Shown piece after piece: positions 24,974-64,000 of a DNA stretch of 64,000 bases. Below the pieces are notes generated by a model that ran no database searches, was not told the origin of the DNA, and saw nothing but the letters and a program-made list of their open reading frames with translations. Numbering within the stretch: position 1 is the first letter of the stretch; the number at the start of each line of letters is the position of its first letter. The DNA is from a virus. Taxonomy: Duplodnaviria > Heunggongvirae > Uroviricota > Caudoviricetes. The DNA is taken from positions 40,861 to 104,860 of the IMG/VR virus record IMGVR_UViG_3300024507_000282; one strand, 5' to 3'. Made by a program: the position numbers and the translations under genes.

Positions 24974-26839
24974 ATGAGCAAAGTCATCGGTATCGACTTG
25001 GGTACTACCAATTCATGCGTAGCAGTCATCGAGTCAGGAAATTCCAAAGTTATTGAAAACAGCGAAGGTGCAAGAACTACACCTAGTATTGTTGCCTATT
25101 CTACAGACGAAGTACTTGTAGGTGCTAGTGCTAAACGTCAAGCAGTAACAAATCCCAAAAACACAATCTATGCGGCCAAGCGTCTTATTGGACGTAAGTT
25201 CAAAGAACAGGCTGTACAAAAAGATATTGACCTAATGCCTTACGAAATCATGGAATCCAAGAATGGAGATGCATGGGTTCGCGCACAGGGTAAAGAATTA
25301 GCACCTCCGCAGATTAGTGCTGAAGTTCTGCGTAAGATGAAAAAGACAGCAGAGGATTATTTAGGTGAAAAAGTTACTCAAGCAGTTATCACAGTTCCCG
25401 CATACTTTAATGACAGCCAAAGACAGGCAACTAAGGATGCTGGAAAAATCGCAGGCTTGGAAGTATTGCGTATTATTAACGAGCCTACTGCGGCAGCTCT
25501 TGCTTATGGTGTTGATAAAAACGACAAAGCAGATCGCAAAGTTGCTGTTTATGACCTTGGTGGTGGTACTTTCGATGTATCGATCATTGAAATTGCCAAC
25601 GTGGATGGCGAAAAACAAATCGAAGTACTAAGCACTAACGGCGACACATTCTTAGGTGGTGAAGACTTTGACCAACGTATTATGGACTACTTGGTCGACG
25701 AGTTTAAGAAAGAGTCAGGCATGAACCTTAAGAAAGACATGTTGGCCTTACAACGTCTAAAAGAAGCCGCTGAAAAAGCCAAGATTGAGTTATCTAGCAG
25801 TGCCAGCACTGATGTTAACTTACCTTACATCACAGCAGACGCAAGTGGTCCTAAGCACATGAATGTTAAGATTACTCGTGCTAAGTTAGAAGCATTGGTA
25901 GAAGAACTAATCCAACGTAGTATCGAACCATGTAAGGTTGCTATGAAGGATGCAGGTGTTACTCCATCAGAAATTGACGAAGTTATTCTTGTTGGTGGGC
26001 AAACACGTATGCCCAAGGTACAAGAAGCAGTTGAAAAACTATTCGGTAAGGCTCCACGCAAAGACGTTAACCCAGACGAAGCAGTAGCAGTTGGTGCGGC
26101 TATTCAAGGTTCAGTACTAGCAGGTGATCGTACAGACGTTCTATTGTTAGACGTAACACCATTGTCACTAGGCATTGAAACTATGGGAGGTGTGTTTACT
26201 AAACTTGTACAAAAGAACACAACTATACCTACTAAGGCTAGCCAAGTGTTTAGCACAGCAGAAGATAATCAACCAGCAGTTGATATCAAAGTAGCACAAG
26301 GCGAGCGTGAACTATTCCAATACAACAAACTCCTGGGTGAGTTTAAGTTAGACGGTATTGCTCCAGCACGTCGTGGCACTCCACAGATTGAAGTTACATT
26401 TGACATCGATGCTAACGGCATTATGAAAATTAGTGCTAAAGATAAAAACACCGGCAAAGAAAATCAAATCACAATTAAGAGTGACAGTGGTCTAAGCAAA
26501 GAGCAGATCGAACAAATGGTTCGTGATGCAGAAGTTAATGCCGAATCAGATAAGAAGGCACGTGAACTTATCGATGCTAGGAACACAGCCGAGGCGTTGA
26601 TCAACAATGTTGAAAACGACATGAAAGAAACAACACTTTCAGACACAGATAAAACAAAGATCGAAGATGCTGTTAAAGCACTTCAAACAGAATTGACAGG
26701 TTCTGACAAAGACGCTATCGTACAAAAGACTAGCGAACTAGCAGTGGCCAGTCAAGCGATTGCACAGGCCAAACAGGACAAGCCATTTGAACCTGTTCAG
26801 GAAGATGCAATCAATGCCGAGTTTAAGGAAACAAACTAA
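24974..26839 (+). CDS. dnaK: molecular chaperone DnaK (Hsp70)
   Basis: [29 protein letters not shown] signatures; 621 aa. Confidence 0.9.
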
Positions 26840-35154: not shown

Positions 35155-36261
35155 ATGAAATTATGGATGGTAGTATTATGCGTTCCGTTGCTGAGTACAT
35201 CGTTGGCCTACGCCGCGATAGGCAAAGTAACGGAACAAATCAATACACCCCCGACTATCCAGAGACAGAATTCGACACTAACGGCGTCGAAAGGGACTGG
35301 AGTGGAAATGAACGATGCGATCAAGACCCAGCAGGGCAAGGTGGGGATAACATTTGAGGACGATACTAAAGTCCAAGTCAATGAAAATTCTAAACTTGTA
35401 ATTGATGATTTCGTTTATGATCCAAAAAGTAAGGCGGGTAAACTAGGTGCTAAGATTGCTCTTGGCACAGTTCGTTATGCGTCTGGACAGATTGCTAAGA
35501 ATTCGCCTCAGAATGTGGCCCTTTCTACTCCTAGTGCTACTGTTGCTGTACGCGGTACTGACTTTACTGCCACTGTAGACGAGCTAGGCGAAAGTACAAT
35601 TATTCTTTTACCTAGTTGTCCTAATGATAGACCAACACGCTCAGTTAGAGATATTGAAACTAACTGTAAGACTGGCAGTATTGAAGTTAGCAATGATGTA
35701 GGTACTGTAATACTAAATCAACCCTTCCAAGTAACTAAAGTTCAAAGTAGAACACAACCTCCTACACCGCCTAAAGTATTAAATCTAAGTGAAATGGCCA
35801 TTGGCAATATGTTAATTGTCAGTCCTCCGCGCGAAGTCAAACAAGCACAACAAGAACAACAGAGAACATTTAATGCTTTAGACTTTGACTTTTTAAAAGA
35901 GAAAGGTTTGGAGAATTATTTAGATATGCAGGCCAATATGATTTATGAAGATAAGTTAGCCAAAAACTTTTTGTCTAATGATTTCCTTGCTAACTTATTC
36001 GACATTGTGGGAAACATACTGGATCAAAAGTTTTTAGATCCTGTAGATCCTGTGCTACCAGACTATAAAAAGTCCAGTGGCATTATAGCCTACAAAGATG
36101 ATATGAGTGTTGAACTCTGTCGCGACAACGGTGCTGACATACAATGTGTTAAAACACCACTCACACAAAACTCAACAATATTACAAACACAGGGCAATTT
36201 AGAATTTAAGAACAGAATAAATCAGGGAGGTAATACTATTATTACCTTGATACAAAAATGA
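35155..36261 (+). CDS. secreted FecR-domain-like protein
   Basis: signal peptide; VAVRGTDFTATV block typical of FecR/DUF4880 beta-domain. Confidence 0.4.
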   Translation: MKLWMVVLCVPLLSTSLAYAAIGKVTEQINTPPTIQRQNSTLTASKGTGVEMNDAIKTQQGKVGITFEDDTKVQVNENSKLVIDDFVYDPKSKAGKLGAKIALGTVRYASGQIAKNSPQNVALSTPSATVAVRGTDFTATVDELGESTIILLPSCPNDRPTRSVRDIETNCKTGSIEVSNDVGTVILNQPFQVTKVQSRTQPPTPPKVLNLSEMAIGNMLIVSPPREVKQAQQEQQRTFNALDFDFLKEKGLENYLDMQANMIYEDKLAKNFLSNDFLANLFDIVGNILDQKFLDPVDPVLPDYKKSSGIIAYKDDMSVELCRDNGADIQCVKTPLTQNSTILQTQGNLEFKNRINQGGNTIITLIQK

Positions 36262-38651
36262 TAAAACGTTTATTACAGTTCCTTGTGTTTTTAACTGTGT
36301 GCATTAGCGCACATAGTCAGGCTGTGACTTATAATGCTATTGCTACTGCTTATGTTACTACTACAATTAGTCAACAAGTAGTGTTTGATAGTAATATGCA
36401 ACAAGGCGGTACATTTACAATGAGTGTACTAGCACACAACGGCGGCGGCCGTGCAGGACAAAGTGATACGGCTAACGTAAAGATACAGTTCTATAACAGC
36501 AGTGGTGGATTAATCACTAGCGTAAACTCAACTAACTCTGCTAACTTACCAAACCCAAATGCTGTGTGTGGTAATCCTTGTATTGATACTGCGGTACCTT
36601 GGACTACAGTAACTATCAGTGCAACGCTTACTGCGGCACAAGCAAGCCAAGTAGCCTATGCCACAGTCAGTATGTACGGTATTGATGGAAGTTACTGGGC
36701 AGGTGATTATGGTCCTTGGTATCGTGCTCCTACATTCCAACTTAATGGCGGCGGCAACTTATTGTATAACCCGGAGTTTGGGCCTTATAATAATATAACA
36801 GCACAAGGTTGGGTATCAAATCCAGGGTTCGGTGCTTGTCAAGGTGCATGGGGCGGATCAAATGCCTGTATCGTTAACAGCGATGGAGTGCCTGGTTCGA
36901 GTACAGTTGGCTTAGTTGCTAACGCTAACGGTGGCGGCCCTAGTGCTACTGGTGGTACTACTAGTGGTACTGCTGGTGGATATAATAACACAATGTCAGT
37001 GACCAATGCTGGCACGGGCGCAACTGCCGGTGCGGCTCCTGCTCCGACTCCTACAGTAACAGGAACTAGTGTAACTTATACAACTAGAACTGTGGTTAAT
37101 GGTAATACAACTACTGTTTATCGCACACCTGTAACTACAACAACTTACAGCGACGGAACTAGCACAAGTACAAATGGTACTGAAGCAGTATATCAAACTA
37201 AGGTTGCGTCTAACGTAGTAACTACAAAAATTGTAAACGGTGTTCTGACAACAACTACAACACCAATTAATACAGTTACTACAACCGGCGTTAATGGCAG
37301 CACCATAGAAGCAAACGGCACAGCAACAACTACAACACAAAACATACAGCAGGGATTAAACTATAAAGTCTACAAATTCGATCCTTACACTTATAACTGC
37401 GGTTGGTTAGGTTGTATTAAAAACTGGTTAGGGCCATATCGTGTACCTGATATGCCACCTGGTGGACAGCCTGTTAGTATTGGTACAACTAGTAACGGAG
37501 TTTATGTTCCGACTAACGGCAGTTTTCCAAATATGGACACTGGTACCTTAGTTAGATTCAACGGAACGATTACTGCTCCGACGACACAAAATTATCCTGC
37601 AGGTACTGTATATAGATTATACTTCTATAGCAACAGCGATGACGGATTTGTTATGAGTGTAAACGGACAAACAGTTATCAACGATAGATCTACATTCCAA
37701 CTTCAGAGTATAGGTGGCTATACAGCGTCTGGCTGGATAGACATAGTAGCAGGACAGACTTATAATTTTGAAGCATGGTACTGGAACGACACCGGCGGCT
37801 ATGGACTACGTTTTCAATGGGACTACGGTGCAGGCCGTATGAACGTACCTAACTCTGCATTTACTACAGGGTGGATTACTGAAACAAATACAATTGACAC
37901 TAGTGGATTTGTTTATTCTAACAGCGCAGTAGTTGACGTGTCGGGTACAACAGTTTTATTAGGACCAGTAGTTGAAGGTGGAACAATTACACAAACAAAT
38001 GCGCCTGGTGATCAAGTTATAGGTAGCGGTGGCTCATACGTTCCTCCAGCAGATATAGATGTTAAACAAACTAGAATTAATACTTGGAACAACGGTACAC
38101 AAAACTACAATAACGAATTGTACATCACACAAACATACGGTACTAACAATAATGTAACTATTACACAAAGTGGTACTAAGAACAAAATCGAATTTACCTT
38201 AGAAGGAAACAACAATATTGTTAATAATACTCAAACTGGCAGTAACTACTTAAAGCAAGAAGTGCCTGGGTGGGGCAATAACATAACTACTAATCAGTCA
38301 AATGCTAGTGGTTCAAATTATGCTGAAACTAAAATACAAGGAAATGGTAATACTGTAAATCATACACAAACCGGTAATCACATATTGTTCAGTAAAGTTA
38401 CAGGCGATATTAATACTGTAAACACTACACAGTCTGGCGGTGCTGGCCATTTCGCTGATATTACACTAACAGGAAATAACAACTCAGCACTAGTGACACA
38501 AACAGGAAATACTGCTAACAGAGCAGTTATTGATGTAACTAACGCAGGTGGCCCAGCCAGTGTTGACCTGCAACAAACAGGCGGCAAATCATTTAGCATC
38601 ATTCAAAGTTGTACAAATCCAGCGGGTTGTAGCACAGTTGTTCGCCAATAA
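36258..38651 (+). CDS. large secreted Thr-rich protein with PA14-like domain and C-terminal curlin-like repeats
   Basis: signal peptide; PA14-like block YFYSNSDDGFVMSVNGQTVIND...AWYWNDTGGYGLRFQW; C-terminal TQTGN/TQSGG repeats. Confidence 0.55.
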   Translation: MIKRLLQFLVFLTVCISAHSQAVTYNAIATAYVTTTISQQVVFDSNMQQGGTFTMSVLAHNGGGRAGQSDTANVKIQFYNSSGGLITSVNSTNSANLPNPNAVCGNPCIDTAVPWTTVTISATLTAAQASQVAYATVSMYGIDGSYWAGDYGPWYRAPTFQLNGGGNLLYNPEFGPYNNITAQGWVSNPGFGACQGAWGGSNACIVNSDGVPGSSTVGLVANANGGGPSATGGTTSGTAGGYNNTMSVTNAGTGATAGAAPAPTPTVTGTSVTYTTRTVVNGNTTTVYRTPVTTTTYSDGTSTSTNGTEAVYQTKVASNVVTTKIVNGVLTTTTTPINTVTTTGVNGSTIEANGTATTTTQNIQQGLNYKVYKFDPYTYNCGWLGCIKNWLGPYRVPDMPPGGQPVSIGTTSNGVYVPTNGSFPNMDTGTLVRFNGTITAPTTQNYPAGTVYRLYFYSNSDDGFVMSVNGQTVINDRSTFQLQSIGGYTASGWIDIVAGQTYNFEAWYWNDTGGYGLRFQWDYGAGRMNVPNSAFTTGWITETNTIDTSGFVYSNSAVVDVSGTTVLLGPVVEGGTITQTNAPGDQVIGSGGSYVPPADIDVKQTRINTWNNGTQNYNNELYITQTYGTNNNVTITQSGTKNKIEFTLEGNNNIVNNTQTGSNYLKQEVPGWGNNITTNQSNASGSNYAETKIQGNGNTVNHTQTGNHILFSKVTGDINTVNTTQSGGAGHFADITLTGNNNSALVTQTGNTANRAVIDVTNAGGPASVDLQQTGGKSFSIIQSCTNPAGCSTVVRQ

Positions 38652-39346: not shown

Positions 39347-39675
39347 AAATACAATTCAAAAAAATACTAGTAAGTCCATGGACTGCTTTACTAACTCTAG
39401 CACTAGTTGTTGGTGTCAGAGTTGCAGATCCTACATTTGTTGAAAGCGTAAGACTACGTTATTTTGACACATTAATTACAAGTAAAGAAGTTACAGTTAA
39501 CAACATAGTTACTGTAAATATCGACGAAGCCACGTTAGACAAATATGGTCAGTGGCCCTTACCAAGAGCAGAATATGCTAAACTTGTGAAGGAACTATAC
39601 CAAAGAAATGCAGGACTTGTTGTACTTAATGTTCTTTGCCAGAGACAGATCGTACTGGTGGAGATGGTGCGCTAG
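39343..39675 (+). CDS. CHASE2 sensor domain, N-terminal fragment of adenylate cyclase gene (frame 1)
   Basis: signal/TM then CHASE2-like blocks; domain continues in a different frame from about 39636. Confidence 0.5.
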   Translation: MKIQFKKILVSPWTALLTLALVVGVRVADPTFVESVRLRYFDTLITSKEVTVNNIVTVNIDEATLDKYGQWPLPRAEYAKLVKELYQRNAGLVVLNVLCQRQIVLVEMVR

Positions 39676-41393
39676 GACAAACTCTAAAAGAGTTCCCTGT
39701 AGTACTAGGAAGTGCGCCAGCACAGAAAACAAAGAATACACCACGTGTTCCAGGATCGGCTGTACTAGGTCCAGAACATCTAGATCAAATTATTCAATAC
39801 CCGGGACTAATCGCCAACGTTCCTCAACTAGAACAAAATGCCGCAGGTGTTGGCATTACAGGAACACTTCCAGAAGTAGATGGTGTTAATCGCCGCATGC
39901 CGTTAATTGTTACTGTAGACGGCAAATTATATCCAGCATTGAGTTTAGAGACACTTAGAGTCGCCGCAGGAGACTCTACCTTCCAAGTAAAACTTTTTGA
40001 AGGCGGCGTTGAGAAAATGCGTATTCCAAAGTTTGGTCCTATTGCTACAGATAGTTTAGGAAGAATTTGGATCGATTGGAGCCAAGAAGCTCATAGCGTT
40101 AGTGCTGTTAAACTTCCAAAAGATTTAGGTGGCGCCGTCGTTATTGTAGGTCCTACTGCCGCTGGTATTAGTAATCCGTTACCGACAAGCAAAGGTGCTG
40201 TATTTCCTCACGAAGTGCAGGCCGCAGTAATTGGTACAATGGTTAACGGCATTGTTATTCAACGTCCCGACTATGCCGACGGGGTTGAAATTTTAGCATT
40301 AGTATCACTTGGCATATTATTAATTTTCTTATCGAGGTGGACTTATGTTGGCATTGGTGCTACTGTGGTTATTGTTGGTGCCATCGTTCCTGGTACTATC
40401 TACGCTTTCAATAATTGGCTCGTCTTGGGAGACGCGACTGCGATCGCGTTTGGCCTTATTATCGTTGCTCTTCATTGTTATGGCGTTAAGTTTATAAGCG
40501 AGTTTTTACAGAAACAGGCAATTAAGAAACAGTTCGCTGGATACTGTAGTAAGGAAGTAGTAGAAATGCTACAAAAAGATCCAGACCTAATCAAGCGTGG
40601 TGTGCGTAAAGACGTATCCGTTATGTTCAGTGACTTGCGTGGCTTTACACCCATTGGAGAACACTACGGTGATGATGTTGCTGGATTAGGCAAGTATATG
40701 AACGGTTACATGGATGCTATTAGTCAGCCTATCATGGACAACAAGGGTATGGTCATAAAGTATGTAGGTGACGCAAGTATGCACATACACGGTGCTCCGA
40801 TTGAAGATCCTAATCATGCCCGTACTATTGTTGCTGTTGGTTTACAGATGTTAGATGCTGTTGATGAGTATACTAAACTAATGGAAGCACAAGGCTTACC
40901 ACCAGCCGCAATGGGTTGGGGTTGTAACTCAGGTATTGGCTTTATTGGTGAGATGGGATCAACTGACAGACATAGTTACGACATCTTAGGTGACATGGTT
41001 TCAACCGCCGCTCGTTTAGAAGCACGTTGTAAGGCCTATGGCGTGTTATGTATCATCGGTGCTGAAACTTACAACCGTACTAAAGATGACTTCTTCTATC
41101 TAATGCTAGATAACTTACAACCTAAAGGCAAAACTGTAGCAGACTTAATCTATACAGCATTAAGAACCAAAGGTGAAGATTACAGTAAAGATAAAGTACA
41201 GCACGAGTTGATGCATGCCTTGTATAAACAAAAGAAGTTCGACGAAGCAGCCGCTATGTGTAAAAAACTAAAAGGCAACTTTGGTGGACAAATGGACAAG
41301 TACTACAAAATCTGGATTGAACGTTGCGAGTTTATGAAAGAACAGAACCTTCCAGATAATTGGAATGGTGAATTCATAGCACATGAAAAATAA
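39636..41393 (+). CDS. CHASE2-TM-class III adenylate/guanylate cyclase, C-terminal part (frame 0)
   Basis: CHASE2 continuation, TM helices, cyclase blocks VSVMFSDLRGFT, KYVGDASMH, GDMVSTAARLEA. Confidence 0.65.
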   Translation: MPETDRTGGDGALGQTLKEFPVVLGSAPAQKTKNTPRVPGSAVLGPEHLDQIIQYPGLIANVPQLEQNAAGVGITGTLPEVDGVNRRMPLIVTVDGKLYPALSLETLRVAAGDSTFQVKLFEGGVEKMRIPKFGPIATDSLGRIWIDWSQEAHSVSAVKLPKDLGGAVVIVGPTAAGISNPLPTSKGAVFPHEVQAAVIGTMVNGIVIQRPDYADGVEILALVSLGILLIFLSRWTYVGIGATVVIVGAIVPGTIYAFNNWLVLGDATAIAFGLIIVALHCYGVKFISEFLQKQAIKKQFAGYCSKEVVEMLQKDPDLIKRGVRKDVSVMFSDLRGFTPIGEHYGDDVAGLGKYMNGYMDAISQPIMDNKGMVIKYVGDASMHIHGAPIEDPNHARTIVAVGLQMLDAVDEYTKLMEAQGLPPAAMGWGCNSGIGFIGEMGSTDRHSYDILGDMVSTAARLEARCKAYGVLCIIGAETYNRTKDDFFYLMLDNLQPKGKTVADLIYTALRTKGEDYSKDKVQHELMHALYKQKKFDEAAAMCKKLKGNFGGQMDKYYKIWIERCEFMKEQNLPDNWNGEFIAHEK

Positions 41394-47177: not shown

Positions 47178-47756
47178 ATGCAGTACAATGAATTTTTAGA
47201 TTGGGTAGATATTGACAAGTTTTCAGATGCTTGTAATAACATCTGTCATCAGACAGTATTAAATGAATCCACAAATCGAATGATGAAAGAAAAATTCATT
47301 ATTGCGGCAATGCAATTATCTAATCATAAAAAGAACATCGAGTGGACTGACGTTCGCGATTACGATATAAAATTTACCGATTGGACCAATGGCGACGTAG
47401 AAGTTAAAACTGGCAACGAACCTTTGTTCTACGCAAAGTCAGGAACTCCTAAAAAGACAATCAGTCTTAAATTAAAAAATGTTTACGAAAGTAAGAATCA
47501 AAGAACTACACTAGACAAAGTTTTTAATCATTTAATGATAGTCCAAATTAAAGGAACATTCGCTGTTGCCTTTGTAGATTACGCAACAGTTAAGGCTAAT
47601 CTAAAACAATTAACAGACGGCTTCTTAGTCAAACTAACACACGACCAAATAAATATTGTGTACAAAAAAGATATGAGAAATGAACCGACATCTTGGACAA
47701 TTGACTTAGATCCAAAACCTTGGATATTTGGCACATTAGCAAAGGCAGGCGTTTAA
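47178..47756 (+). CDS. hypothetical protein
   Basis: 192 aa ORF. Confidence 0.5.
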   Translation: MQYNEFLDWVDIDKFSDACNNICHQTVLNESTNRMMKEKFIIAAMQLSNHKKNIEWTDVRDYDIKFTDWTNGDVEVKTGNEPLFYAKSGTPKKTISLKLKNVYESKNQRTTLDKVFNHLMIVQIKGTFAVAFVDYATVKANLKQLTDGFLVKLTHDQINIVYKKDMRNEPTSWTIDLDPKPWIFGTLAKAGV

Positions 47757-47761
47757 AGAAT

Positions 47762-48118
47762 TGTTGTAATCCCTTCAAAGCGAAGGACTTCTGGACGCGG
47801 GTTCGACTCCCGCCAGGTCCACCATAAGGACATAAATTTACTTTGGTATTCATTGTAAATTTACTTTGGTATTGTGTTTTTATGATGGGCCTGCCATGGT
47901 TTCGACAGGGGTAGATAGTAGAGACGGCAACACGGTAGGCGATGACCGTAAATCAAGCAAAACTAGTAAATGCAAACGCATCTACATTTGAGTACTTCAC
48001 TGTTGAAGGCTTCACAGCCGACAATGGTCTAGTAGCAGCCTAAGAAACTGCAACTCCGGGGTAGGACTTACCTTGTAACCCAAACAACCAAAGGGCCTTC
48101 GGGCCCTTTTTTATTTTA
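47762..48118 (+). ncRNA. ssrA: two-piece (circularly permuted) tmRNA gene: acceptor piece first, coding piece second
   Basis: 47791-47824 T-arm GCGGG-TTCGACT-CCCGC + CAGGTCC-A-CCA; 47887 GGGCCTG pairs with it giving G3:U70; UUUCGACAGGGG tmRNA-like 5' element; tag ORF 47972-48043 ANASTFEYFTVEGFTADNGLVAA; terminator at end. Confidence 0.6.
48092..48117 (+). terminator. intrinsic terminator
   Basis: GGGCCttcgGGCCC + T6. Confidence 0.75.
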
Positions 48119-48127
48119 CCAAACACA

Positions 48128-48156
48128 TTGACAGATGCCCTGTCCGAGCCTATAAT
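48128..48156 (+). promoter_or_regulatory. perfect-consensus sigma70 promoter TTGACA-N17-TATAAT
   Basis: exact hexamers 37 nt before ATG 48193. Confidence 0.6.
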
Positions 48157-53824: not shown

Positions 53825-53898
53825 GCGCTTGAAGCTCAATGGATAGGCAGGGACTTCTAAACTCCCGATAGCAGGTTCGATTCCTGTCTAGCGCACCA
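53825..53898 (+). tRNA. isolated tRNA whose anticodon loop TTCTAAA gives anticodon CUA (amber-suppressor-like); identity uncertain
   Basis: acceptor GCGCTTG/CTAGCGC (one U.U), 3-bp D stem, AC stem GGGAC/CTCCC with C.C closing pair, T-arm GCAGG-TTCGATT-CCTGT, CCA encoded. Confidence 0.5.
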
Positions 53899-58640: not shown

Positions 58641-59021
58641 AGATTTGGAAATGAAAATGAATTTTGAAGATTTTAGAAAACAGAAAAGTGCCAAAGTGCT
58701 AAGTGAGCATGAACTGGACGACGATGCTTTTGAAAAACTCATCGAAGAAAAGTTTAATCGTGCTCGTGCTTATCACACAGCACTTTACAAGAGAGAAGTT
58801 GAGCTCGTAGAGCAAGACTAATCTCAAACGTGTTATAGGGAACGCGACCCTGCCTGCACGTAAAACATGGGCTTAATGTGGGCGGCCTACCGGATGGTAA
58901 GTTCTAGGCGATAACTAGAATGTGTAAAAAGGTAGCGTATTAAAGCATACTGCCGAACAATCAAATGGCAGTAGCCGATGAGTAGTATGCTTTAATACAC
59001 ACTTTCGAAAGAGAGTGTTAT

Positions 59022-59096
59022 GTATCCCTAGTGTTAATGGCAGCACGACAGTCTCCAAAACTGCTAGTCGGGGTTCGAGTCCCTGGGGGTACGCCA
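59022..59096 (+). tRNA. tRNA-Trp (CCA)
   Basis: acceptor GTATCCC/GGGGTAC, D GTGT/GCAC, AC loop CTCCAAA, T-arm GTCGG-GGTTCGAGT-CCCTG region, CCA encoded. Confidence 0.75.
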
Positions 59097-59101
59097 ATAA
59101 T

Positions 59102-59179
59102 GCAACGGTGGCAGAGAGGCCCAATGCAACGGATTGCAAATCCGTAAAACCGTCAGTTCAAATCTGACCCGTTGCTCCA
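59102..59179 (+). tRNA. tRNA-Cys (GCA)
   Basis: acceptor GCAACGG/CCGTTGC, AC stem ACGGA/TCCGT loop TTGCAAA, T-arm GTCAG-TTCAAAT-CTGAC. Confidence 0.7.
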
Positions 59180-59187
59180 GGTTATAT

Positions 59188-59277
59188 CCCCCGTTAGCTC
59201 ATGGAGAGCAGGTCGGCTTATAACCGATTAATCTAGATAAGGTCCAGGATGAGGTTCGATTCCTCAACGGGGGACCA
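59188..59277 (+). tRNA. 90-nt tRNA with long variable region; anticodon loop CTTATAA (UAU, Ile2-like?)
   Basis: acceptor CCCCCGT/ACGGGGG, AC stem GTCGG/CCGAT, T-arm TGAGG-TTCGATT-CCTCA; D and variable arms atypical. Confidence 0.45.
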
Positions 59278-59290
59278 TAAGGAGAATATT

Positions 59291-59353
59291 ATGGCAGTAC
59301 TTGTAGTGTTAGTTATAATGTTCGTGTTGTATCAAGTTTTGAAAAAATATTAA
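59291..59353 (+). CDS. 20-aa hydrophobic micro-ORF inside tRNA array
   Basis: strong GGAG SD 6 nt upstream; MAVLVVLVIMFVLYQVLKKY. Confidence 0.25.
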   Translation: MAVLVVLVIMFVLYQVLKKY

Positions 59354-59448
59354 AAGGAGAGTAGCATGAAACGTGCTAAACGTTAGTGTCACTCTAGATC
59401 TCCCGTATGGTCTAGGGTTGGCACGTAAAATCAAATCAATACGTACAA

Positions 59449-59524
59449 CCCTGTTTAGCGTCAATGGTAGCGCACTTGACTCTTAATCAATGAGGTGTGA
59501 GTTCGAATCTCACAGCAGGGACCA
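59449..59524 (+). tRNA. tRNA-Lys (CTT)
   Basis: acceptor CCCTGTT/AGCAGGG (G.U), D GCGT/GCGC, AC loop CTCTTAA, T-arm GTGAG-TTCGAAT-CTCAC. Confidence 0.6.
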
Positions 59525-59527
59525 TAT

Positions 59528-59602
59528 GGGGGTATAACTTAATGGTTAAAGTAGCGGGCTTTTAACCCGTAAATCAGAGTTCGATTCTCTGTGCCCCTAC
59601 CA
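59528..59602 (+). tRNA. tRNA-Lys (TTT)
   Basis: acceptor GGGGGTA/TGCCCCT (two G.U), D ACTT/AAGT, AC GCGGG/CCCGT loop CTTTTAA, T-arm CAGAG-TTCGATT-CTCTG. Confidence 0.7.
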
Positions 59603-59784
59603 TATGAAAGCATTCTTAACTGGTCGCATAGCGTCAGTAGTAAGGACGGGCCACCATCTTATGACGAAAAAGGCATAAGAGTGCTTCCATATGGTAGTGT
59701 ATAAAAACAAACTAACCACAGCCAGGAACTATAGACTCTGGGTGCATAGCGCATTGTCGTTAGTTTCTTTTTGTATAGTATTAT

Positions 59785-59858
59785 TCCTGGATAGTTAAAT
59801 GGTATAACAATCGGCTGATAACCGGTCATTCTGAGTTCAATTCTCGGTCCAGGAACCA
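59785..59858 (+). tRNA. tRNA-Ile (GAT)
   Basis: acceptor TCCTGGA/TCCAGGA, D GTTA/TAAC, AC ATCGG/CCGGT loop CTGATAA, T-arm CTGAG-TTCAATT-CTCGG. Confidence 0.7.
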
Positions 59859-59864
59859 ATTTAC

Positions 59865-59939
59865 ATAGCGTTCGACTTCTGGGGAGGTCATCACCCTTTC
59901 AAGGTGACTAGGCGGGTTCGATCCCCGTACGCTATACCA
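59865..59939 (+). tRNA. tRNA-Glu (TTC)
   Basis: acceptor ATAGCGT/ACGCTAT, D GACT/GGTC, AC TCACC/GGTGA loop CTTTCAA, T-arm GCGGG-TTCGATC-CCCGT. Confidence 0.75.
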
Positions 59940-60024
59940 GAGCAAATAGAGATCTTGTGGGTTCATCCATGTTCTCTCAATGTTTGTTAGTTTCAATGGG
60001 TGGTATAGAAACTAACACCAATTT

Positions 60025-60099
60025 GGGGGCAGTAGTGGGCTACGGTCTTCCCTTGCAAGGAAGATGTCTAGAAGGATTCGATTTCCTCGGCCTCCACCA
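60025..60099 (+). tRNA. tRNA-Ala (TGC) with G3:U70
   Basis: acceptor GGGGGCA/GGCCTCC gives G3.U70; AC CTTCC/GGAAG loop CTTGCAA; T-loop TTCGATT; D-arm poorly formed. Confidence 0.55.
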
Positions 60100-60101
60100 A
60101 A

Positions 60102-60179
60102 TTTGCGACAATGGTGGGTTAACCGGCCTTGCCGGGGCATTCTAGATTACCGCGAAGGTTCGAGTCCTTCGGTCGCAAT
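60102..60179 (+). tRNA. tRNA-like element (T-arm and acceptor pairing but no clean anticodon arm); possible pseudo-tRNA, no CCA
   Basis: T-arm GAAGG-TTCGAGT-CCTTC; TGCGAC(A) pairs with GGTCGCA; middle region does not fold canonically. Confidence 0.3.
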
Positions 60180-60188
60180 TATTTTTAT

Positions 60189-60266
60189 CTCTGCGTAATG
60201 TCAATCTGGTAGACGGCCTGATCTGGAGTCAGGAGGCTGTACGTTCGAATCGTACCGTGGAGACCA
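60189..60266 (+). tRNA. tRNA, anticodon loop TCTGGAG (UGG, Pro-like; C33)
   Basis: acceptor CTCTGCG/CGTGGAG (two G.U), AC CCTGA/TCAGG, T-arm GTACG-TTCGAAT-CGTAC. Confidence 0.55.
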
Positions 60267-60271
60267 ATTTT

Positions 60272-60346
60272 GCCCTTGTATCCTTAGTGGTAGAGGTCCT
60301 GTTTTGTAAGCAGGGTGTGGTGGTTCGATTCCATCCTGGGGCACCA
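60272..60346 (+). tRNA. tRNA, anticodon loop TTTGTAA (UGU, Thr-like)
   Basis: acceptor GCCCTTG/CTGGGGC (one U.U), AC CCTGT/GCAGG, T-arm GGTGG-TTCGATT-CCATC. Confidence 0.6.
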
Positions 60347-60572
60347 AGTTTTGTAAGTGTCAGCAAGAGAATGTCACGCTATTGTAGGTAAGTTCGAACT
60401 ACCTTAATAGTAAAAGGGGACGGGTTCAACTCCCGGGGGATCGGAAGATCCCTGCAGATTGGTTGCTAACTGGACTAGTATCCCAAGTGACGTACCGAGT
60501 CCCAGCCGGCTTTATATACATGGGTGAATGGTTGCTATAACGATGGGGCAACTACTTACAAATTCAATCTGT
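60347..60572 (+). ncRNA. 226-bp tRNA-free spacer with two tRNA top-half-like minihelices and hairpins (candidate small stable RNAs)
   Basis: CTATT..GGTAAGTTCGAACTACC..AATAG minihelix; ACGGGTTCAACTCCCG T-arm-like element; GGGATCggaaGATCCC and GTTGC..GCAAC hairpins; no ORF. Confidence 0.3.
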
Positions 60573-60646
60573 TGGCCTATGGTGTAATGGTAACACAACT
60601 GACTTTGACTCAGTCGTTCCAGGTTCGAGTCCTGGTAGGCCTGCCA
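60573..60646 (+). tRNA. tRNA-Gln (TTG)
   Basis: acceptor TGGCCTA/TAGGCCT, D GTGT/ACAC, AC ACTGA/TCAGT loop CTTTGAC, T-arm CCAGG-TTCGAGT-CCTGG. Confidence 0.7.
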
Positions 60647-60653
60647 ATTTTAA

Positions 60654-60730
60654 CGGTCCTTAACTCAATGGATTAGAGTGCCAGTCTTCGAAACTGGAGG
60701 TTGGGAGTTCGAGTCTCTCAGGGCCGGCCA
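60654..60730 (+). tRNA. tRNA-Arg (TCG)
   Basis: acceptor CGGTCCT/AGGGCCG, D ACTC/GAGT, AC CCAGT/ACTGG loop CTTCGAA, T-arm GGGAG-TTCGAGT-CTCTC. Confidence 0.65.
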
Positions 60731-60732
60731 AT

Positions 60733-60807
60733 GGTGTTGCTAGTGTAGTGGTCCGCACGGCTGTCTGTGAAACAGTAAGGCAGGGTTCGATTCCCGGCTT
60801 CACCCCA
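60733..60807 (+). tRNA. tRNA-His (GTG), acceptor with two U.U mismatches
   Basis: D GTGT/GCAC, AC GCTGT/ACAGT loop CTGTGAA, T-arm CAGGG-TTCGATT-CCCGG, CCCCA 3' end; acceptor register ambiguous. Confidence 0.5.
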
Positions 60808-60813
60808 AATATC

Positions 60814-60889
60814 GCCGCTTTAGCAAATGTGGTCATTGCACCGGTTTGAAGCACCGAGGAACTTGGTTCGATCCCAAGGGGCGGCACCA
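60814..60889 (+). tRNA. tRNA-Phe (GAA)
   Basis: acceptor GCCGCTT/GGGCGGC (two G.U), D GCAA/TTGC, AC loop TTGAAGC, T-arm CTTGG-TTCGATC-CCAAG. Confidence 0.7.
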
Positions 60890-60896
60890 TAATTAT

Positions 60897-60973
60897 GCCC
60901 TTGTACGCTAATTGGTAATGCGAATGGATTTAAAATCCGTTGTGTGTAGGTTCGAATCCAACCAAGGGTACCA
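60897..60973 (+). tRNA. tRNA with anticodon UAA (Leu codon UUA) but short type-I variable arm
   Basis: acceptor GCCCTTG/CAAGGGT (G1.U72), AC ATGGA/TCCGT loop TTTAAAA, T-arm GTAGG-TTCGAAT-CCAAC, discriminator A. Confidence 0.55.
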
Positions 60974-60974
60974 T

Positions 60975-61046
60975 GCCTCTGCTGATGGAGCAGTGCCAGG
61001 TCTTCTAAACCAGGTTATAGTAGTTCGAATCTACTCAGAGGCGCCA
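60975..61046 (+). tRNA. tRNA-Arg (TCT), short (72 nt)
   Basis: acceptor GCCTCTG/CAGAGGC, AC CAGGT/ACCAG (one A.A) loop CTTCTAA, T-arm AGTAG-TTCGAAT-CTACT. Confidence 0.55.
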
Positions 61047-61048
61047 AG

Positions 61049-61122
61049 GCTCTTGTAGGTAAATGGTATACCAGTGTCTTGGTACGACACAATCGAAAGT
61101 TCGATTCTTTCCTTGAGCACCA
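61049..61122 (+). tRNA. tRNA-Thr (GGT), acceptor with two U.U mismatches
   Basis: acceptor GCTCTTG/CTTGAGC, D GGTA/TACC, AC GTGTC/GACAC loop TTGGTAC, T-arm GAAAG-TTCGATT-CTTTC. Confidence 0.65.
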
Positions 61123-61127
61123 GATAT

Positions 61128-61205
61128 ACCCCTGTGGACAAATTGGTAAAGTCGTCTCTCTCAAAAGGAGAAGTTCTCTCCGTTCGAATCGGAGCAGGGG
61201 TACCA
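61128..61205 (+). tRNA. tRNA with anticodon CAA (Leu codon UUG), short variable arm
   Basis: acceptor ACCCCTG/CAGGGGT, AC TCTCT/GGAGA loop CTCAAAA, T-arm CTCCG-TTCGAAT-CGGAG. Confidence 0.5.
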
Positions 61206-61251
61206 CATTTGTAGCAGATTCTATCTACAACGAATTATACAAGTAAAACAA

Positions 61252-61341
61252 CGAAGCGTGGCAGAGTCCGGTTTATTGCACCTGTCTTGAAAACAGACGA
61301 TCCGAAAGGGTCCGTGAGTTCGAATCTCACCGCTTCGGCCA
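61252..61341 (+). tRNA. tRNA-Ser (TGA), type II
   Basis: acceptor CGAAGCG/CGCTTCG, AC loop CTTGAAA, variable arm GATCCgaaaGGGTC, T-arm GTGAG-TTCGAAT-CTCAC. Confidence 0.65.
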
Positions 61342-61348
61342 AAAGGTG

Positions 61349-61377
61349 TTGACTTGTTTAACAGTTGATCGTATAAT
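61349..61377 (+). promoter_or_regulatory. sigma70-like promoter TTGACT-N17-TATAAT inside tRNA array
   Basis: consensus hexamers 9 nt before tRNA-Ser(GCT). Confidence 0.55.
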
Positions 61378-61385
61378 ACAAATAT

Positions 61386-61480
61386 AGTGAGTTGGCCGAG
61401 CTGGTCGAAGGCACCTTCCTGCTAAGAAGGCATTCCTGCAAAAACGGGGATCAAGGGTTCGAATCCCTTACTCACTGCCA
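61386..61480 (+). tRNA. tRNA-Ser (GCT), type II
   Basis: acceptor AGTGAGT/ACTCACT, AC CCTTC/GAAGG loop CTGCTAA, long variable arm, T-arm AAGGG-TTCGAAT-CCCTT. Confidence 0.65.
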
Positions 61481-61487
61481 AAATGTC

Positions 61488-61516
61488 TTGACTAGTTTCT
61501 AAAGTTCATATACAAT
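61488..61516 (+). promoter_or_regulatory. sigma70-like promoter TTGACT-N17-TACAAT inside tRNA array
   Basis: hexamers about 50 nt before tRNA-Tyr. Confidence 0.5.
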
Positions 61517-61567
61517 AGAGACTAGTTAAGAAATTAACCTAGTTCTTTAAAAATTTCAAGCAGATAT

Positions 61568-61653
61568 GGATGTGTAGGAAAATTGGTAACCCCAGTGGAC
61601 TGTAAATCCGCCGCCTTACGGCACTGCTGGTTCGACTCCAGCCGCATCCACCA
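61568..61653 (+). tRNA. tRNA-Tyr (GTA), type II
   Basis: acceptor GGATGTG/CGCATCC, AC GTGGA/TCCGC loop CTGTAAA, variable hairpin GCCttacGGC, T-arm GCTGG-TTCGACT-CCAGC. Confidence 0.7.
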
Positions 61654-62793
61654 TTAAGAAATAGCATTGACGGGTATCGTCTATGGACGCATAGACTTAT
61701 GAAGGATAAGGCCATCTTACCCTTCTGAGAAAACCGTGAACAATGGCTTATGAGGAGAATCGAACTCCACTCAGAAATACGTTTCATCCCATAGGGTGTA
61801 ATGTTATTTTTTAATGGTAAAAATTTAAGGGTAGTTTATTATCCTGTTGGCGGTTCGCCGTTGACGAAGAATAAGTTGAGTGATCAACCCAAAGGAGGTA
61901 AGCCTACGCAACTCCGCCAGTAATGGTTCATGTAAACAAGCCTGCTCACTACCGCGAGGTAGCGTTCACTGAGAAGACCGGTGGATGTAACAATGAAGCA
62001 AGTGTTAGGGAAAGAATGTGTATCGACTGGCCCGCAAGGGAACCAGGGTGCATGAAAAGTAACGGGTGGTGCTGACTTCCTAACAAAACCAACTTGCGAA
62101 TTGGTATGAGAAAGGGTAGTGTATTTGTCCAAGGGGTCGCTCCTAAGGGCTTGTATGCAATATTAATGGTTAGTGGACTGTTTTGATGCAGGACATTGAT
62201 CGTGAAATATCACTGAGTAGTCCGCGAGACAAAAGGTATGTGGTGAGTTGTATTCAGTAATCCAAAAGGTTATTGAGCAACAGAGGCAGCTCATCGCGGT
62301 AGGTTTGATATAGCGTAATGGTAACGCAATTGCCTCTTAAGCAATGGACTGTTGGTTCGATCCCAACTATCGATTATAAAATGCAAAGACTGCCTCGGTC
62401 ATATGTGAAAAGCATCTAATACTCGAGCCGCAAGGTAATCGAGTCAGACGTAGCTCGCAAGGTGAAATCTGTTTATGCTGGAAGTTTCGTAAGTGGTTAG
62501 CGCCGCTGAATGGCTCGCAAGGTCAACGGAGTAGATAGCGTAGAATAGCATATGGCGACAAGACTACTGCCTGTCTTTAAAAACGGCGATGCTGATAGTG
62601 GACATAGGTACAGTAATGGCTTATGTGGATGTCTAGAGAAGGTTGGCTCGCAAGGCTGACTATAATGCTAGAGGCACTATTGGCTAACGTATAATCTCAG
62701 CGTTAGCACTATTCTAAAACACATTAGCTCGAACCGAATAACGGCATTATAAATGCTTCTGGTAGTTGGTTAGTGTGTTTCAGAATAGAATTT
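61654..62793 (+). ncRNA. 1.1-kb ORF-poor spacer in the tRNA array carrying a repeated GCYCGCAAGG motif (5 copies) and many hairpins; candidate structured RNA(s)
   Basis: no + strand ORF over 60 aa; motif at 62029, 62425, 62451, 62511, 62643; one pseudo-tRNA inside. Confidence 0.35.
62297..62366 (+). pseudogene. tRNA-like pseudogene (D-arm, CTT anticodon arm, T-arm present; acceptor stem unpaired)
   Basis: D GCG/CGC, AC ATTGC/GCAAT loop CTCTTAA, T-arm GTTGG-TTCGATC-CCAAC; no 7-bp acceptor helix, no CCA. Confidence 0.35.
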
Positions 62794-62870
62794 GCACCGT
62801 TAGCTCAGTTGGTCAGAGCGCCGGCCTGTCACGTCGGAGGCCAGGGGTTCAAGTCCCCTACGGTGCGCCA
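62794..62870 (+). tRNA. tRNA-Asp (GTC)
   Basis: acceptor GCACCGT/ACGGTGC, D GCTC/GAGC, AC CCGGC/GTCGG loop CTGTCAC, T-arm AGGGG-TTCAAGT-CCCCT. Confidence 0.8.
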
Positions 62871-62884
62871 AGATAACTATTAAT

Positions 62885-63688
62885 ATGAAAACACTTTTAA
62901 TTTTAGGAGATTGCCAAAGTAATGGCAATAATTGTTTGGCTGGTGACATAGTCAACGACGATGCTCCGAGGACTTGGAGTCTACGTTTCCATAATGATTT
63001 TAGAAGTGTTTTTAAATGGTATCTAAAACATAGAAAAGAAAACAATGTTACAACACCTATGCCCAATGGCAATATGGAAAATGTTGTTTGGCATTATCTA
63101 TGGGAAGAAGAACAAAAAGCCGCATGGCCTAATTTCTTAAATGTTTCCAATGTAGTTAATATATCTATTAACGGTGGACATTTTATAGGTCATCACAAAA
63201 GATTAAAACAGTACCTAGCAGAGAATCCTAAACCGGATCATGTATTAGTTACAGATTACACGTTTAGTCATATAGCACACAGTTTCAAATATAACAATCA
63301 ACGATATGTATTTGAACGTGAAAATTATGTAGACGGAGAATGGAATCCAGATAGATATCCAATTGAAGTTCATAAAAAGCGATTAAACGGTATTGCTTTT
63401 CAAAAAAGTCAAAGCAAAGATTGGCATATTCGTAGACATAGAAATGGTTACAATATGTTAATTAAGTTTTTAGATTCTCAAAATATTAAATGGACGACTG
63501 TTAGGTTTGGAGATCCTAATCCTGACAACTCAGAAATTTTTAAAGAGTTTATGCACACTGGTATAGATTGTACTGAATACGGAAAACAGTATATGAGTGC
63601 TAATGGTGAGAATGCAAAAATTAAATTGTCTGTGCAAGAAAAAATTGCAACGACAATTCAGGAATACTTAAATAGTATTGTCAGTTAA
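62885..63688 (+). CDS. AT-rich hypothetical protein embedded in tRNA array (possible Cys-variant GDSL/SGNH-like fold)
   Basis: 267 aa ORF; N-terminal LILGDCQSNGNN resembles SGNH block I with Cys in place of Ser; lower GC than surroundings. Confidence 0.45.
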   Translation: MKTLLILGDCQSNGNNCLAGDIVNDDAPRTWSLRFHNDFRSVFKWYLKHRKENNVTTPMPNGNMENVVWHYLWEEEQKAAWPNFLNVSNVVNISINGGHFIGHHKRLKQYLAENPKPDHVLVTDYTFSHIAHSFKYNNQRYVFERENYVDGEWNPDRYPIEVHKKRLNGIAFQKSQSKDWHIRRHRNGYNMLIKFLDSQNIKWTTVRFGDPNPDNSEIFKEFMHTGIDCTEYGKQYMSANGENAKIKLSVQEKIATTIQEYLNSIVS

Positions 63689-63689
63689 T

Positions 63690-63773
63690 GCCCTGGTGGT
63701 GGAATGGTAGACACGCTGGTCTTAGAAGCCAGTGGCGAGAGCCGTGAGAGTTCGAGTCTCTCCTGGGGCACCA
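63690..63773 (+). tRNA. tRNA-Leu (TAG), type II
   Basis: acceptor GCCCTGG/CTGGGGC, AC CTGGT/GCCAG loop CTTAGAA, variable hairpin GGCgagaGCC, T-arm GAGAG-TTCGAGT-CTCTC. Confidence 0.7.
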
Positions 63774-63779
63774 AAATAT

Positions 63780-63855
63780 GCGGGTGAAGTGTTTGTGGTT
63801 ACACGTCAGTCTTCCAAACTGAAATAGACGAGTTCAACTCTCGCCTCCCGCTCCA
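63780..63855 (+). tRNA. tRNA-Gly (TCC)
   Basis: acceptor GCGGGTG/CTCCCGC (one U.U), D GTGT/ACAC, AC TCAGT/ACTGA loop CTTCCAA, T-loop TTCAACT. Confidence 0.7.
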
Positions 63856-63860
63856 TCATT

Positions 63861-63937
<77 letters not shown>

Positions 63938-63947
63938 ATGTTAGTTT

Positions 63948-64000
63948 GCCTGGTTAGCTCAGTGGTAGAGCGTCTCGTTTACACCGAGAGGGTCGGCAGT
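63948..64000 (+). tRNA. tRNA-Val (TAC), 3' end beyond window
   Basis: acceptor GCCTGGT, D GCTC-AGTGGTA-GAGC, AC TCTCG/CGAGA loop TTTACAC. Confidence 0.6.

Follow-up and report, generated by a model that had tools for sequence, protein, structure and literature searches.

We analysed a stretch of 64,000 nucleotides (nt) from a virus of the Caudoviricetes (IMG/VR record IMGVR_UViG_3300024507_000282, positions 40,861 to 104,860), hereafter the window, to whose positions all coordinates refer. About 25 transfer RNA (tRNA) genes are found by ARAGORN at 59022-64000, and within this array the genes for tRNA-Tyr and tRNA-Asp are separated by a kilobase that had been flagged in a preliminary description of the sequence. 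This description had noticed five copies of a motif, GCYCGCAAGG, together with hairpins and a pseudo-tRNA, and both flanking tRNA genes lie where it had placed them (Table 1). The flagged kilobase is very probably the gene for one GOLLD RNA of ~880 nt (~61826-62703), a large structured RNA that comprises a 5' domain, a conserved 3' domain and a linker holding a tRNA-like cloverleaf.

The exact motif occurs four times in the 64-kb window, in all cases within the flagged region, while dinucleotide-preserving shuffles give an expectation of 0.05 and none of 100 shuffles reaches four copies. The copy at 62425 is one base short, so that four of the five copies noticed are exact, and the last copy is present but starts at 62644 instead of 62643. 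Conservation, pairing and loop sequences were read from an alignment of the window with 27 homologues (28 sequences, referred to as A1), in which individual loci are designated by L numbers.

Table 1. Positions of the GOLLD element, its parts and neighbours, and of selected genes elsewhere in the window (nt counts and loop frequencies refer to the window and to alignment A1, respectively)
Feature	Position	Strand	Remarks
tRNA-Tyr(GUA)	61568..61653	+	encoded CCA; upstream neighbour; ARAGORN, Rfam
Spacer hairpin 1	61650..61818	+	19-nt closing stem ACCAUUAAGAAAUAGCAUU with AAUGUUAUUUUUUAAUGGU, branched interior; inverted repeat, 89% complementary
GOLLD 5' domain	61826..62239	+	414 nt, outside the Rfam model; nhmmer (27 loci), A1, RNAalifold
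GOLLD conserved 3' domain	62240..62703	+	full RF02032 model, positions 1-416
Linker-closing helix	62283..62396	+	GAGGCAGC (62283-62290) pairs with GACUGCCUC (62388-62396); encloses linker and tRNA-like insert
tRNA-Lys(CUU)-like cloverleaf	62303..62376	+	in linker (J13/15, published numbering); without encoded CCA, U1-U72 mismatch, A/U-rich acceptor stem
Long-range pairing, 5' partner GUCAUAUGU	62398..62406	+	helix 28
Long-range pairing, 3' partner GCAUAUGGC	62548..62556	+	helix 28
Motif copy GGCCCGCAAGGG	62029
Motif copy GAGCCGCAAGGT	62425		GCC-GCAAGG, 1 base short, not exact GCYCGCAAGG
Motif copy TAGCTCGCAAGGT	62451
Motif copy TGGCTCGCAAGGT	62511
Motif copy TGGCTCGCAAGGC	62644
Unit 1 hairpin	62026..62046	+	5' domain, CUGGCC-CGCAA-GG-AA-CCAG; helices 13, 14
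Unit 2 hairpin	62421..62444	+	ACUCGAGCC-GCAA-GGUAAUCGAGU; helix 29, 9 pairs, 8 compensatory
Unit 3 hairpin	62445..62471	+	matches Rfam consensus 'ggcuCGCAAggcc'; helices 30, 31
Unit 4 hairpin	62511..62525	+	GGCU-CGCAA-GGUC; helix 35
Unit 5 hairpin	62643..62660	+	extra, inserted in terminal loop of model hairpin 362-403; helix 40
Cap GUGA	61880		GUGA in 21/28
Cap GUAA	61920		GCAA in 11, GUAA in 8
Cap GCGA	61954		GCGA in 11, GUGA in 11
Cap GCAA (unit 1)	62033		variable length, mostly GNRA-capped
Cap GCGA	62223		(C)GCGA in 12, (C)GCAA in 10
Cap GCAA (unit 2)	62430		GCAA in 21/28; GUAA 3, UUCG 2, GAAA 1
Cap GCAA (unit 3)	62456		CGCAA in 28/28
Cap GCAA (unit 4)	62516		CGCAA in 16, CUAAA in 11
Cap GCAA (unit 5)	62650		GCAA in 26/26 sequences having the hairpin
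Spacer hairpin 2	62709..62788	+	80 nt; ~19-bp stem CUAUUCUAAAACACAUUAG with UUAGUGUGUUUCAGAAUAG, one A/C mismatch, variable interior
tRNA-Asp(GUC)	62794..62870	+	encoded CCA; downstream neighbour; ARAGORN, Rfam
Class I ribonucleotide reductase large subunit	12452-14779
Full-length Hsp70/DnaK	24974-26839
797-amino-acid protein with curlin repeat	36258-38651		only phage relatives HTVC008M, Melnitz, 27-33% identity
CHASE2-adenylate/guanylate cyclase	39636-41393

GOLLD domains and their covariation

A cmscan search against Rfam gives a full-length match to the GOLLD family (RF02032) at 62240-62703, with 207.2 bits compared to a gathering score of 150, an E-value of 4e-57 and all model positions covered (1-416/416). 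No competing Rfam family is found over this match, even at E up to 1. The complete element amounts to 878 nt including a 72-nt insert, of which 414 nt belong to the 5' domain and 464 nt to the 3' domain. GOLLD RNAs are encoded by phages, lie near tRNA islands and sometimes hold tRNAs in their linker (PMC12286853; PMC12990946). The window element shares with the family a model score above the threshold, covarying 3' helices, a large structured 5' domain, a helix-closed linker that holds a tRNA, a covarying long-range pairing and its place in a phage tRNA array, and nothing contradicts the assignment. Traits of the family also include expression as a discrete large RNA that increases in the lytic cycle.

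To collect homologues, IMG/VR was scanned with a short 3'-domain pattern and then searched by nhmmer with the two halves of the window element separately. The 27 viral contigs that match both halves carry their GOLLD within tRNA arrays. When 20 loci were rescanned with Rfam, 19 gave GOLLD matches above the gathering score (157-235 bits), and the full RF02032 model is covered in 18 of these 19; the remaining locus, L036, is cut off by the end of its contig.

The consensus structure of both domains was obtained with RNAalifold on A1, followed by base-pair counts. It comprises 228 predicted pairs in 41 helices that are 98.0% paired, compared to 35-41% when the 3' partners are slid by 1-3 columns. 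Since the structure is derived from the same alignment the percentage paired is inflated. This bias does not explain the compensatory pairs, with changes on both sides in 162 pairs, nor the number of distinct pair types, and no column shuffle out of 500 attains even one of the five measures used. The Rfam match and the covariation agree with the earlier expectation of a structured, stable non-coding RNA in a phage tRNA cluster.

In the 5' domain, helices 1-21 are 92-100% paired, most of them with compensatory changes. The domain forms a multi-helix fold with long-range closing helices, four GNRA-capped hairpins and, in addition, the first of the GCAAGG units. Long-range covarying helices join 61940-61948 with 62107-62117 and 61991-62010 with 62078-62103. 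The conserved part starts at ~61826 (TAAGGGTAG...), because the nhmmer matches to the 5' half always begin at position 126-263 of the query 61654-62239, mostly at 150-220. The homologues show no conservation over the 170 nt directly following tRNA-Tyr (61654-61825), and homology appears only after ~61805 in the nhmmer matches. A less conserved, variable 5' domain of similar size is known from the family, spanning residues 1-420 of the 833-nt env-38 RNA (PMC12286853) and helices P1-P13 in the family numbering (PMC12990946).

The helices of the 3' domain (22-41) are 92-100% paired as well, and most show changes on both sides. Helix 23, which closes the linker, has 8 pairs, is 100% paired and includes 4 compensatory pairs. 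Helix 28 connects 62398-62406 with 62548-62556 by 9 pairs, again 100% paired and with 6 compensatory pairs. Rfam annotates this long-range pairing as a pseudoknot, and the equivalent J13/15-L20 pairing is an intermolecular bridge in structures determined by cryo-electron microscopy (cryo-EM; Kretsch et al. 2025, PMC12286853). The embedded tRNA falls in the unpaired stretch 63-140 of the RF02032 model, i.e. the variable linker of the family. As covarying long-range helices tie the region together, it corresponds to one large RNA and not to a string of independent hairpins.

The embedded tRNA-like cloverleaf

The pseudo-tRNA of the preliminary description is indeed present: ARAGORN reports a tRNA-Lys(CTT) at 62303-62376, and the Rfam tRNA model matches 62304-62375 with 62.5 bits. 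The cloverleaf has a canonical 7-nt anticodon loop with U33 and A37, while its 3' tail reads UAUAAA, compared to NCCA in all 25 free tRNAs of the window, most of which have seven of seven acceptor pairs. Its GC content is 0.40, compared to 0.43-0.66 in the free tRNAs. The insert duplicates a free tRNA-Lys(CUU) with a perfect acceptor stem at 59449-59524, to which it is 68% identical, and the differences are located mostly in the acceptor stem.

A tRNA at the same place in the linker is detected by ARAGORN in 21 of the 27 loci sharing both domains (24 of 31 loci scanned). The insert is nearly universal in this clade: it can be aligned in 26 of the 28 sequences of A1, the exceptions being L012 and L013, from which it is deleted. 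L006 and L101 have inserts with a degenerate T-loop. Across the homologues the D, anticodon and T stems covary (helices 25-27). Acceptor positions 1-3 are mismatched with 70-72 in most homologous inserts, some of which are aligned by Rfam only over model positions 4-67, and a CCA follows the insert in L064 only (A1 columns 693-775).

Nearly identical cloverleaf bodies carry different anticodons. The CUU (Lys) of the window is found as UUA (ochre-suppressor type) in L116, the Lys-UUU of L070 as Arg-UCU in L097, and the Lys-UUU of L120 as AUU in L036 and Ile-GAU in L096. An NUU anticodon (Lys or Asn) is present in 20 of 26 inserts. Two inserts have A34 anticodons (AUU and AUG), forms that to our knowledge are not normal bacterial decoders. 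Our search of the literature for GOLLD and anticodon, whose coverage was incomplete, returned no account of anticodon turnover or acceptor decay in the embedded cloverleaf, while the literature does describe GOLLD members that hold a tRNA in the linker (PMC12286853; PMC6582537; PMC12990946). The insert is probably a tethered, tRNA-shaped structural or ligand-binding module rather than a tRNA that is released and charged.

An alternative is that GOLLD serves as a carrier or 'inhibited storage' precursor of a working tRNA-Lys(CUU). The cloverleaf would then be shielded in the cage until RNase P and a 3' endonuclease cut it out, after which it would receive its CCA from the host enzyme and be used in translation; its excision would split the GOLLD RNA in two. 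Storage has been raised in the literature (PMC12990946; PMC12286853) and would be consistent with the covarying D, anticodon and T stems, the canonical anticodon loop, the high score on the Rfam tRNA model and the prevalence of NUU anticodons. We nevertheless consider it unlikely. The insert has no encoded CCA while every free tRNA of the window does, most homologues have mismatches at the acceptor end, and the window already has a free tRNA-Lys(CUU) whose stem is perfect, of which the insert is a duplicate. Moreover, deletion of the insert or degeneration of its T-loop occurs in some homologues, and orthologous bodies have different anticodons, including the A34 forms. No northern signal was obtained from the pseudo-tRNA that lies within GOLLD of Mycobacterium aubagnense (PMC6582537).

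Hairpin caps, flanking hairpins and transcript ends

Projected onto the window the consensus structure contains nine GNRA-type hairpin caps, and the GCAAGG units are five of these (Table 1), which bears out the view that they are GNRA-type tetraloops. Unit 1 belongs to the 5' domain, while the other four are located in hairpins of the conserved 3' domain. Units 2 and 3 (62425 and 62451) match two consecutive hairpins of the RF02032 model and the unit at 62511 matches a third. The units cap separate hairpins that are conserved, and the ACTCGA...TCGAGT hairpin described around 62425 is confirmed. All five share a CC/GG or CUC/GG closing context. The GCAAGG units are loop caps at non-equivalent positions of the fold and not repeats of a site.

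These data bear on what the units had originally been thought to mean, namely that the region encodes several small stable RNAs, as a larger analogue of T4 species 1 and 2, or that the units are repeated processing or recognition sites. Species 1 and 2 of T4 (bands C and D) are stable non-coding RNAs of ~120-140 nt that lie among the tRNA genes and are co-processed with these; we know of no report that they resemble GOLLD or oligomerise. The location of the region in a phage tRNA cluster, as for the T4 RNAs, the over-representation of the motif (4 observed, 0.05 expected) and the local hairpin formed by each unit would fit such a reading, which we nonetheless judge to be highly improbable. A continuous stretch of 464 nt is accounted for by one covariance model, that of a large RNA already known, and covarying helices link positions that are 100-170 nt apart in both halves. 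The units occupy different, individually conserved positions of the fold, and some are swapped for UUCG, GAAA or UAAA loops in homologues. As other stable loops can replace them, the units are not sequence-specific recognition sites. Instead of discrete RNAs of ~120-140 nt, the window thus harbours a single GOLLD RNA ~6-7 times larger than the T4 species, and the candidate processing signals are the two long flanking hairpins and not the GCAAGG units.

The region could also be a decaying spacer without function, composed of a tRNA pseudogene, tRNA relics and chance hairpins. The stretch 61654-61825 is unconserved in homologues and includes a T-arm-like hairpin without a tRNA call, but 27 other contigs share ~880 conserved nt and 162 of the pairs are compensatory, which refutes decay for 61826-62703, and a full-length match to a curated Rfam family is incompatible with neutral decay. 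We give this explanation practically no weight; neutral decay is possible only for the interior of the 5' spacer hairpin. Just as negligible is the probability that one or more small proteins are encoded on either strand: 18 mechanical open reading frames (ORFs) of 30-90 amino acids overlap 61500-62900, but those overlapping the flagged region reach at most 82 amino acids on either strand, in keeping with the earlier finding of no convincing ORF, the substitutions are base-pair compensatory and not codon-periodic, and indels of any length occur in the loops in A1.

The 5' end of the RNA can be placed at ~61824-61827 by means of homologue promoters. In six homologues (L005, L045, L080, L009, L101 and L121) a sigma-70 promoter with an 11/12 match (TTGACA-17-TACAAT or TATAAT) ends 6-9 nt before the conserved start, and three more homologues have such promoters by eye. 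At the 3' end, the cryo-EM construct of env-38 stops at ...GUAUUCUCAGCCU, which corresponds to 62703. No consensus promoter is present between 61654 and 61826 in the window, the best match in our own scan being 7/12, while a strong promoter is located upstream of tRNA-Tyr at 61488-61516. As a consensus promoter directly in front of the element is lacking, the GOLLD RNA of the window is probably made by read-through from the promoter at 61488-61516.

The element is bracketed by two long hairpins. Spacer hairpin 1 has a minimum free energy (MFE) of -46.9 kcal/mol (z -3.3) and its sequence is not conserved in homologues. Its closing stem includes the 3' ACCA of tRNA-Tyr, and its interior contains a hairpin at 61785-61798 followed by a U-run, resembling a terminator. 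Spacer hairpin 2 (MFE -29.5 kcal/mol, z -5.4) starts 6 nt after the GOLLD 3' end and stops 5 nt before tRNA-Asp. RNAalifold gave no structure for the 3' flank of A1, where the hairpin interiors are not alignable, and sequences were therefore folded individually. In 18 homologues the GOLLD 3' end is likewise followed by a hairpin built in this way, in which the inner stem is conserved in sequence and the outer stem covaries. L103 and L015 have short GC-rich hairpins in its place, the latter followed by a T-run. With a promoter at the 5' side, or a GC-rich 3' hairpin as in L103 and L015, some of the homologous GOLLD genes look like stand-alone transcription units, unlike that of the window. The long spacer hairpins may be RNase III-type processing sites, recognised as double strands, or insulating elements between the units of a polycistronic precursor. 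The GOLLD RNA would then probably be freed by RNase III-type cleavage in the flanking hairpins together with RNase P cleavage at tRNA-Asp.

Long inverted repeats are also found in other spacers of the array (58937-58998, 59597-59697 and 59695-59780). Together with 61650-61818 and 62709-62788 they have a common design but not a common sequence, with arms of 15-26 nt that are 81-100% complementary. Two of them start inside the ...CCA of the preceding tRNA, i.e. Lys-UUU (59597) and Tyr (61650). The flanking hairpin arms TAGTGTGTTT and AAACACATTA were considered as a dispersed repeat family and rejected, as they are not enriched in the tRNA array beyond the GOLLD flank. Elsewhere in the window, AAACACATTA or AAACACAGTA recurs three times, at 18276, 18369 and 18465, with a spacing of ~95 nt (18276-18474). 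Inside spacer hairpin 1, positions 61758-61772 read GGAGAATCGAACTCC, the reverse complement of which is T-arm-like (GGAGTTCGATTCTCC) and is followed by ...TCATAAGCCA. No minus-strand tRNA is detected at this place by ARAGORN, nor by Rfam at E up to 1; the stretch may be a minus-strand tRNA relic.

Comparison with known GOLLD cages and phage context

GOLLD structures have been solved for env-38 as a 14-mer (PDB 9MEE) and for Streptococcus agalactiae as a 12-mer, and by cryo-EM and mass photometry protein-free homo-oligomers of the family are known as 10-, 12- or 14-mers (PMC12286853; PMC12990946). In the solved structures each chain is held together and joined to others through its hairpin loops and adenosines, by A-minor, tetraloop-receptor and kissing contacts (PMC12286853; PMC12990946). 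By analogy with these homologues, the GOLLD RNA of the window would fold without protein and homo-oligomerise into a closed cage of two half-shells, in which the 5' domains would form the caps and the 3' domains the ring. The GNRA loops, including the caps described above, and adenosines would make the same A-minor and tetraloop-receptor contacts, and the long-range pairing would bridge chains. The linker, and hence the tRNA-like module, would point into the interior of the cage.

We compared the element with env-38, a marine metagenome member of the same Rfam family with the same two-domain layout (Kretsch et al. 2025, PMC12286853). The version of env-38 used here, taken from the supplement, has 816 nt instead of 833, i.e. 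it is 17 nt short and its residue numbers are offset. The 5' domains are 414 nt (window) and 420 nt (env-38) long; for the 3' domains the lengths are 464 nt, with the 72-nt insert counted, and 413 nt. Both RNAs have a P14 hairpin with a CAAAA loop, a linker-closing helix, the J13/15-L20 pairing, a terminal GUAUUCUCAGC hairpin at the 3' end and adjoining tRNA genes. In env-38 the pairing that flanks the linker is readable as UGAUAGAC with GUCUAUCA, and J13/15-L20 can be read in its sequence as well (Supplementary Table 4, PMC12286853). The linkers differ, that of env-38 being a disordered 42-nt loop without tRNA while that of the window holds the cloverleaf. Among the 3'-domain hairpins compared, env-38 has one GCAA-capped hairpin (ACCGCAAGU, sequence as transcribed), whereas the window has three such hairpins with (C)GCAA and, as an insertion in another loop, one more hairpin with a GCAA cap. 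The long hairpins bracketing the window element are not part of the env-38 construct.

Several observations weigh against parts of this picture. Oligomerisation, stoichiometry and the inward orientation of the linker are transferred from homologues without detectable sequence similarity, to which the element is linked only by the covariance model and the shared pairings. Searches by nhmmer with three A1 profiles, one for each half and one for the complete alignment, found no significant match in env-38, and the helix-by-helix mapping to the cryo-EM numbering is for this reason partial and tentative. The stoichiometry in the window is not predictable, because the solved members differ (10, 12, 14). 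The 5' domain of this clade may represent the published P1-P13 fold or a distinct variant; the motifs visible in both are short, e.g. ACGGGUGGUGC. The proposed read-through is assumed to pass the terminator-like hairpin and U-run at 61785-61812, which lie between the upstream promoter and GOLLD. Finally, with 62.5 bits and a canonical anticodon loop the cloverleaf looks like a good tRNA and may be released as a functional one.

If a cage is formed, its working part might be the tRNA-like module itself, a proposal that we regard as a long shot. The module would then be neither inert filler nor a tRNA gene. Tethered anticodon arms, displayed in 10-14 copies per particle, would act as a sponge or decoy that draws in host factors directed at tRNAs, e.g. 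anticodon nucleases or modification enzymes, or would constitute a regulated store, and the anticodon would be rapidly retuned as hosts change. tRNA-Lys is the target of the anticodon nucleases PrrC and PARIS. Such a role fits the data because the D, anticodon and T arms covary and the anticodon loop is canonical while the acceptor end is degraded and without CCA, and because orthologous bodies carry different anticodons, NUU prevailing among the inserts. In the published structures the linker lies inside the cage, which counts against easy access (PMC12286853).

Counterparts of the linker tRNA are found in other phages. The phiCbK-type Caulobacter phage CcrMagneto (JX100812) and the Sinorhizobium phage Phosso (PV764938) score 169 and 187 bits on the GOLLD model; in both a tRNA occupies the place in the linker where it is found in the window, and in CcrMagneto this is a tRNA-Lys CUU. 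GOLLDs of this type occur in phages of 219-469 kb with adjoining tRNAs, in CcrMagneto also with a permuted transfer-messenger RNA (tmRNA). Only their 3' half can be aligned with the window by sequence, while the 5' regions are unmatched. The GOLLD stretches carry no annotation in the GenBank records of CcrMagneto and Phosso; the phiCbK group is included in the published GOLLD alignment.

The mycobacterial GOLLD resembles that of the window in its location inside a cluster of more than 30 tRNA genes and in a predicted pseudo-tRNA, which is not detectably expressed (PMC6582537). It differs in being borne by a bacterial chromosome or prophage of an actinobacterial host with horizontally acquired tRNA arrays, and its embedded tRNA is reported to be of the tRNA-Phe type (PMC12990946). 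ROOL RNA (RF03087) is comparable to GOLLD in its large size, its origin from phages or prophages, its location near tRNA islands and its cage, which consists of RNA only and has an internal linker, but its sequence and fold are unrelated and its 5' and 3' parts are intertwined instead of forming two domains. Rfam finds no ROOL match in the window.

As a discovery the element has little weight. The kind of RNA is already known, standard Rfam annotation would name its 3' half, and both the location in a tRNA array and the tRNA in the linker are published GOLLD traits. Its practical value lies elsewhere. GOLLD belongs to the small number of natural RNAs known to form cages without protein. Together, the window and the 27 related loci make up a clade that is well sampled and alignable over both domains, and thereby provide a covariation-supported structure for the 5' domain outside the Rfam model. 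The clade also represents a natural series of linkers, with intact cloverleaf, degenerate T-loop or deleted insert and at least six anticodons, and some members have clear transcription units with near-consensus 5' promoters and 3' terminators or long hairpins. Such material could serve to decide between cargo, decoy and structural element as the role of the embedded tRNA. Side points that may be worth pursuing are the changing anticodons and the decaying acceptor end of the cloverleaf, the hairpin brackets and the 5' domain structure of the clade.

Searching isolated phages with 24 kb of the window by megablast gave tRNA-sized matches only, and the matches of a distant blastn search of the region were limited to its GOLLD and tRNA part and came from Phosso and phiCbK-like phages. 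Since the phage has no close relative among isolated phages, this copy of GOLLD is probably undescribed so far. Structural proteins gave weak tblastn matches to Pelagibacter phage HTVC008M and Methylophilales phage Melnitz. The window contains an ORF for a tail-fibre-like protein. The genes listed in Table 1 suggest that this uncultivated virus is a large aquatic myovirus-like phage.

Three further observations were made in the window. A permuted (two-piece) tmRNA gene is located at 47671-48134 (138 bits on tmRNA_permuted), with an unusually long predicted tag, ANASTFEYFTVEGFTADNGLVAA; permuted tmRNAs are also found near GOLLD in CcrMagneto (L002), L056 and L101. A tRNA with a CUA anticodon (ARAGORN 'Pyl', amber-suppressor type) lies at 53825-53898; its CCA is encoded and its score on the Rfam tRNA model is 38 bits. 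As CUA tRNAs are also present in L116 and L064, and a UUA tRNA in L116, these genes hint at stop-codon suppression or recoding in this phage group. Directly after tRNA-Asp, within the tRNA array, an ORF of 267 amino acids (62885-63688) has no Pfam match; its N-terminus, LILGDCQSNG, resembles the GDSL/SGNH hydrolase motif as judged by eye only.

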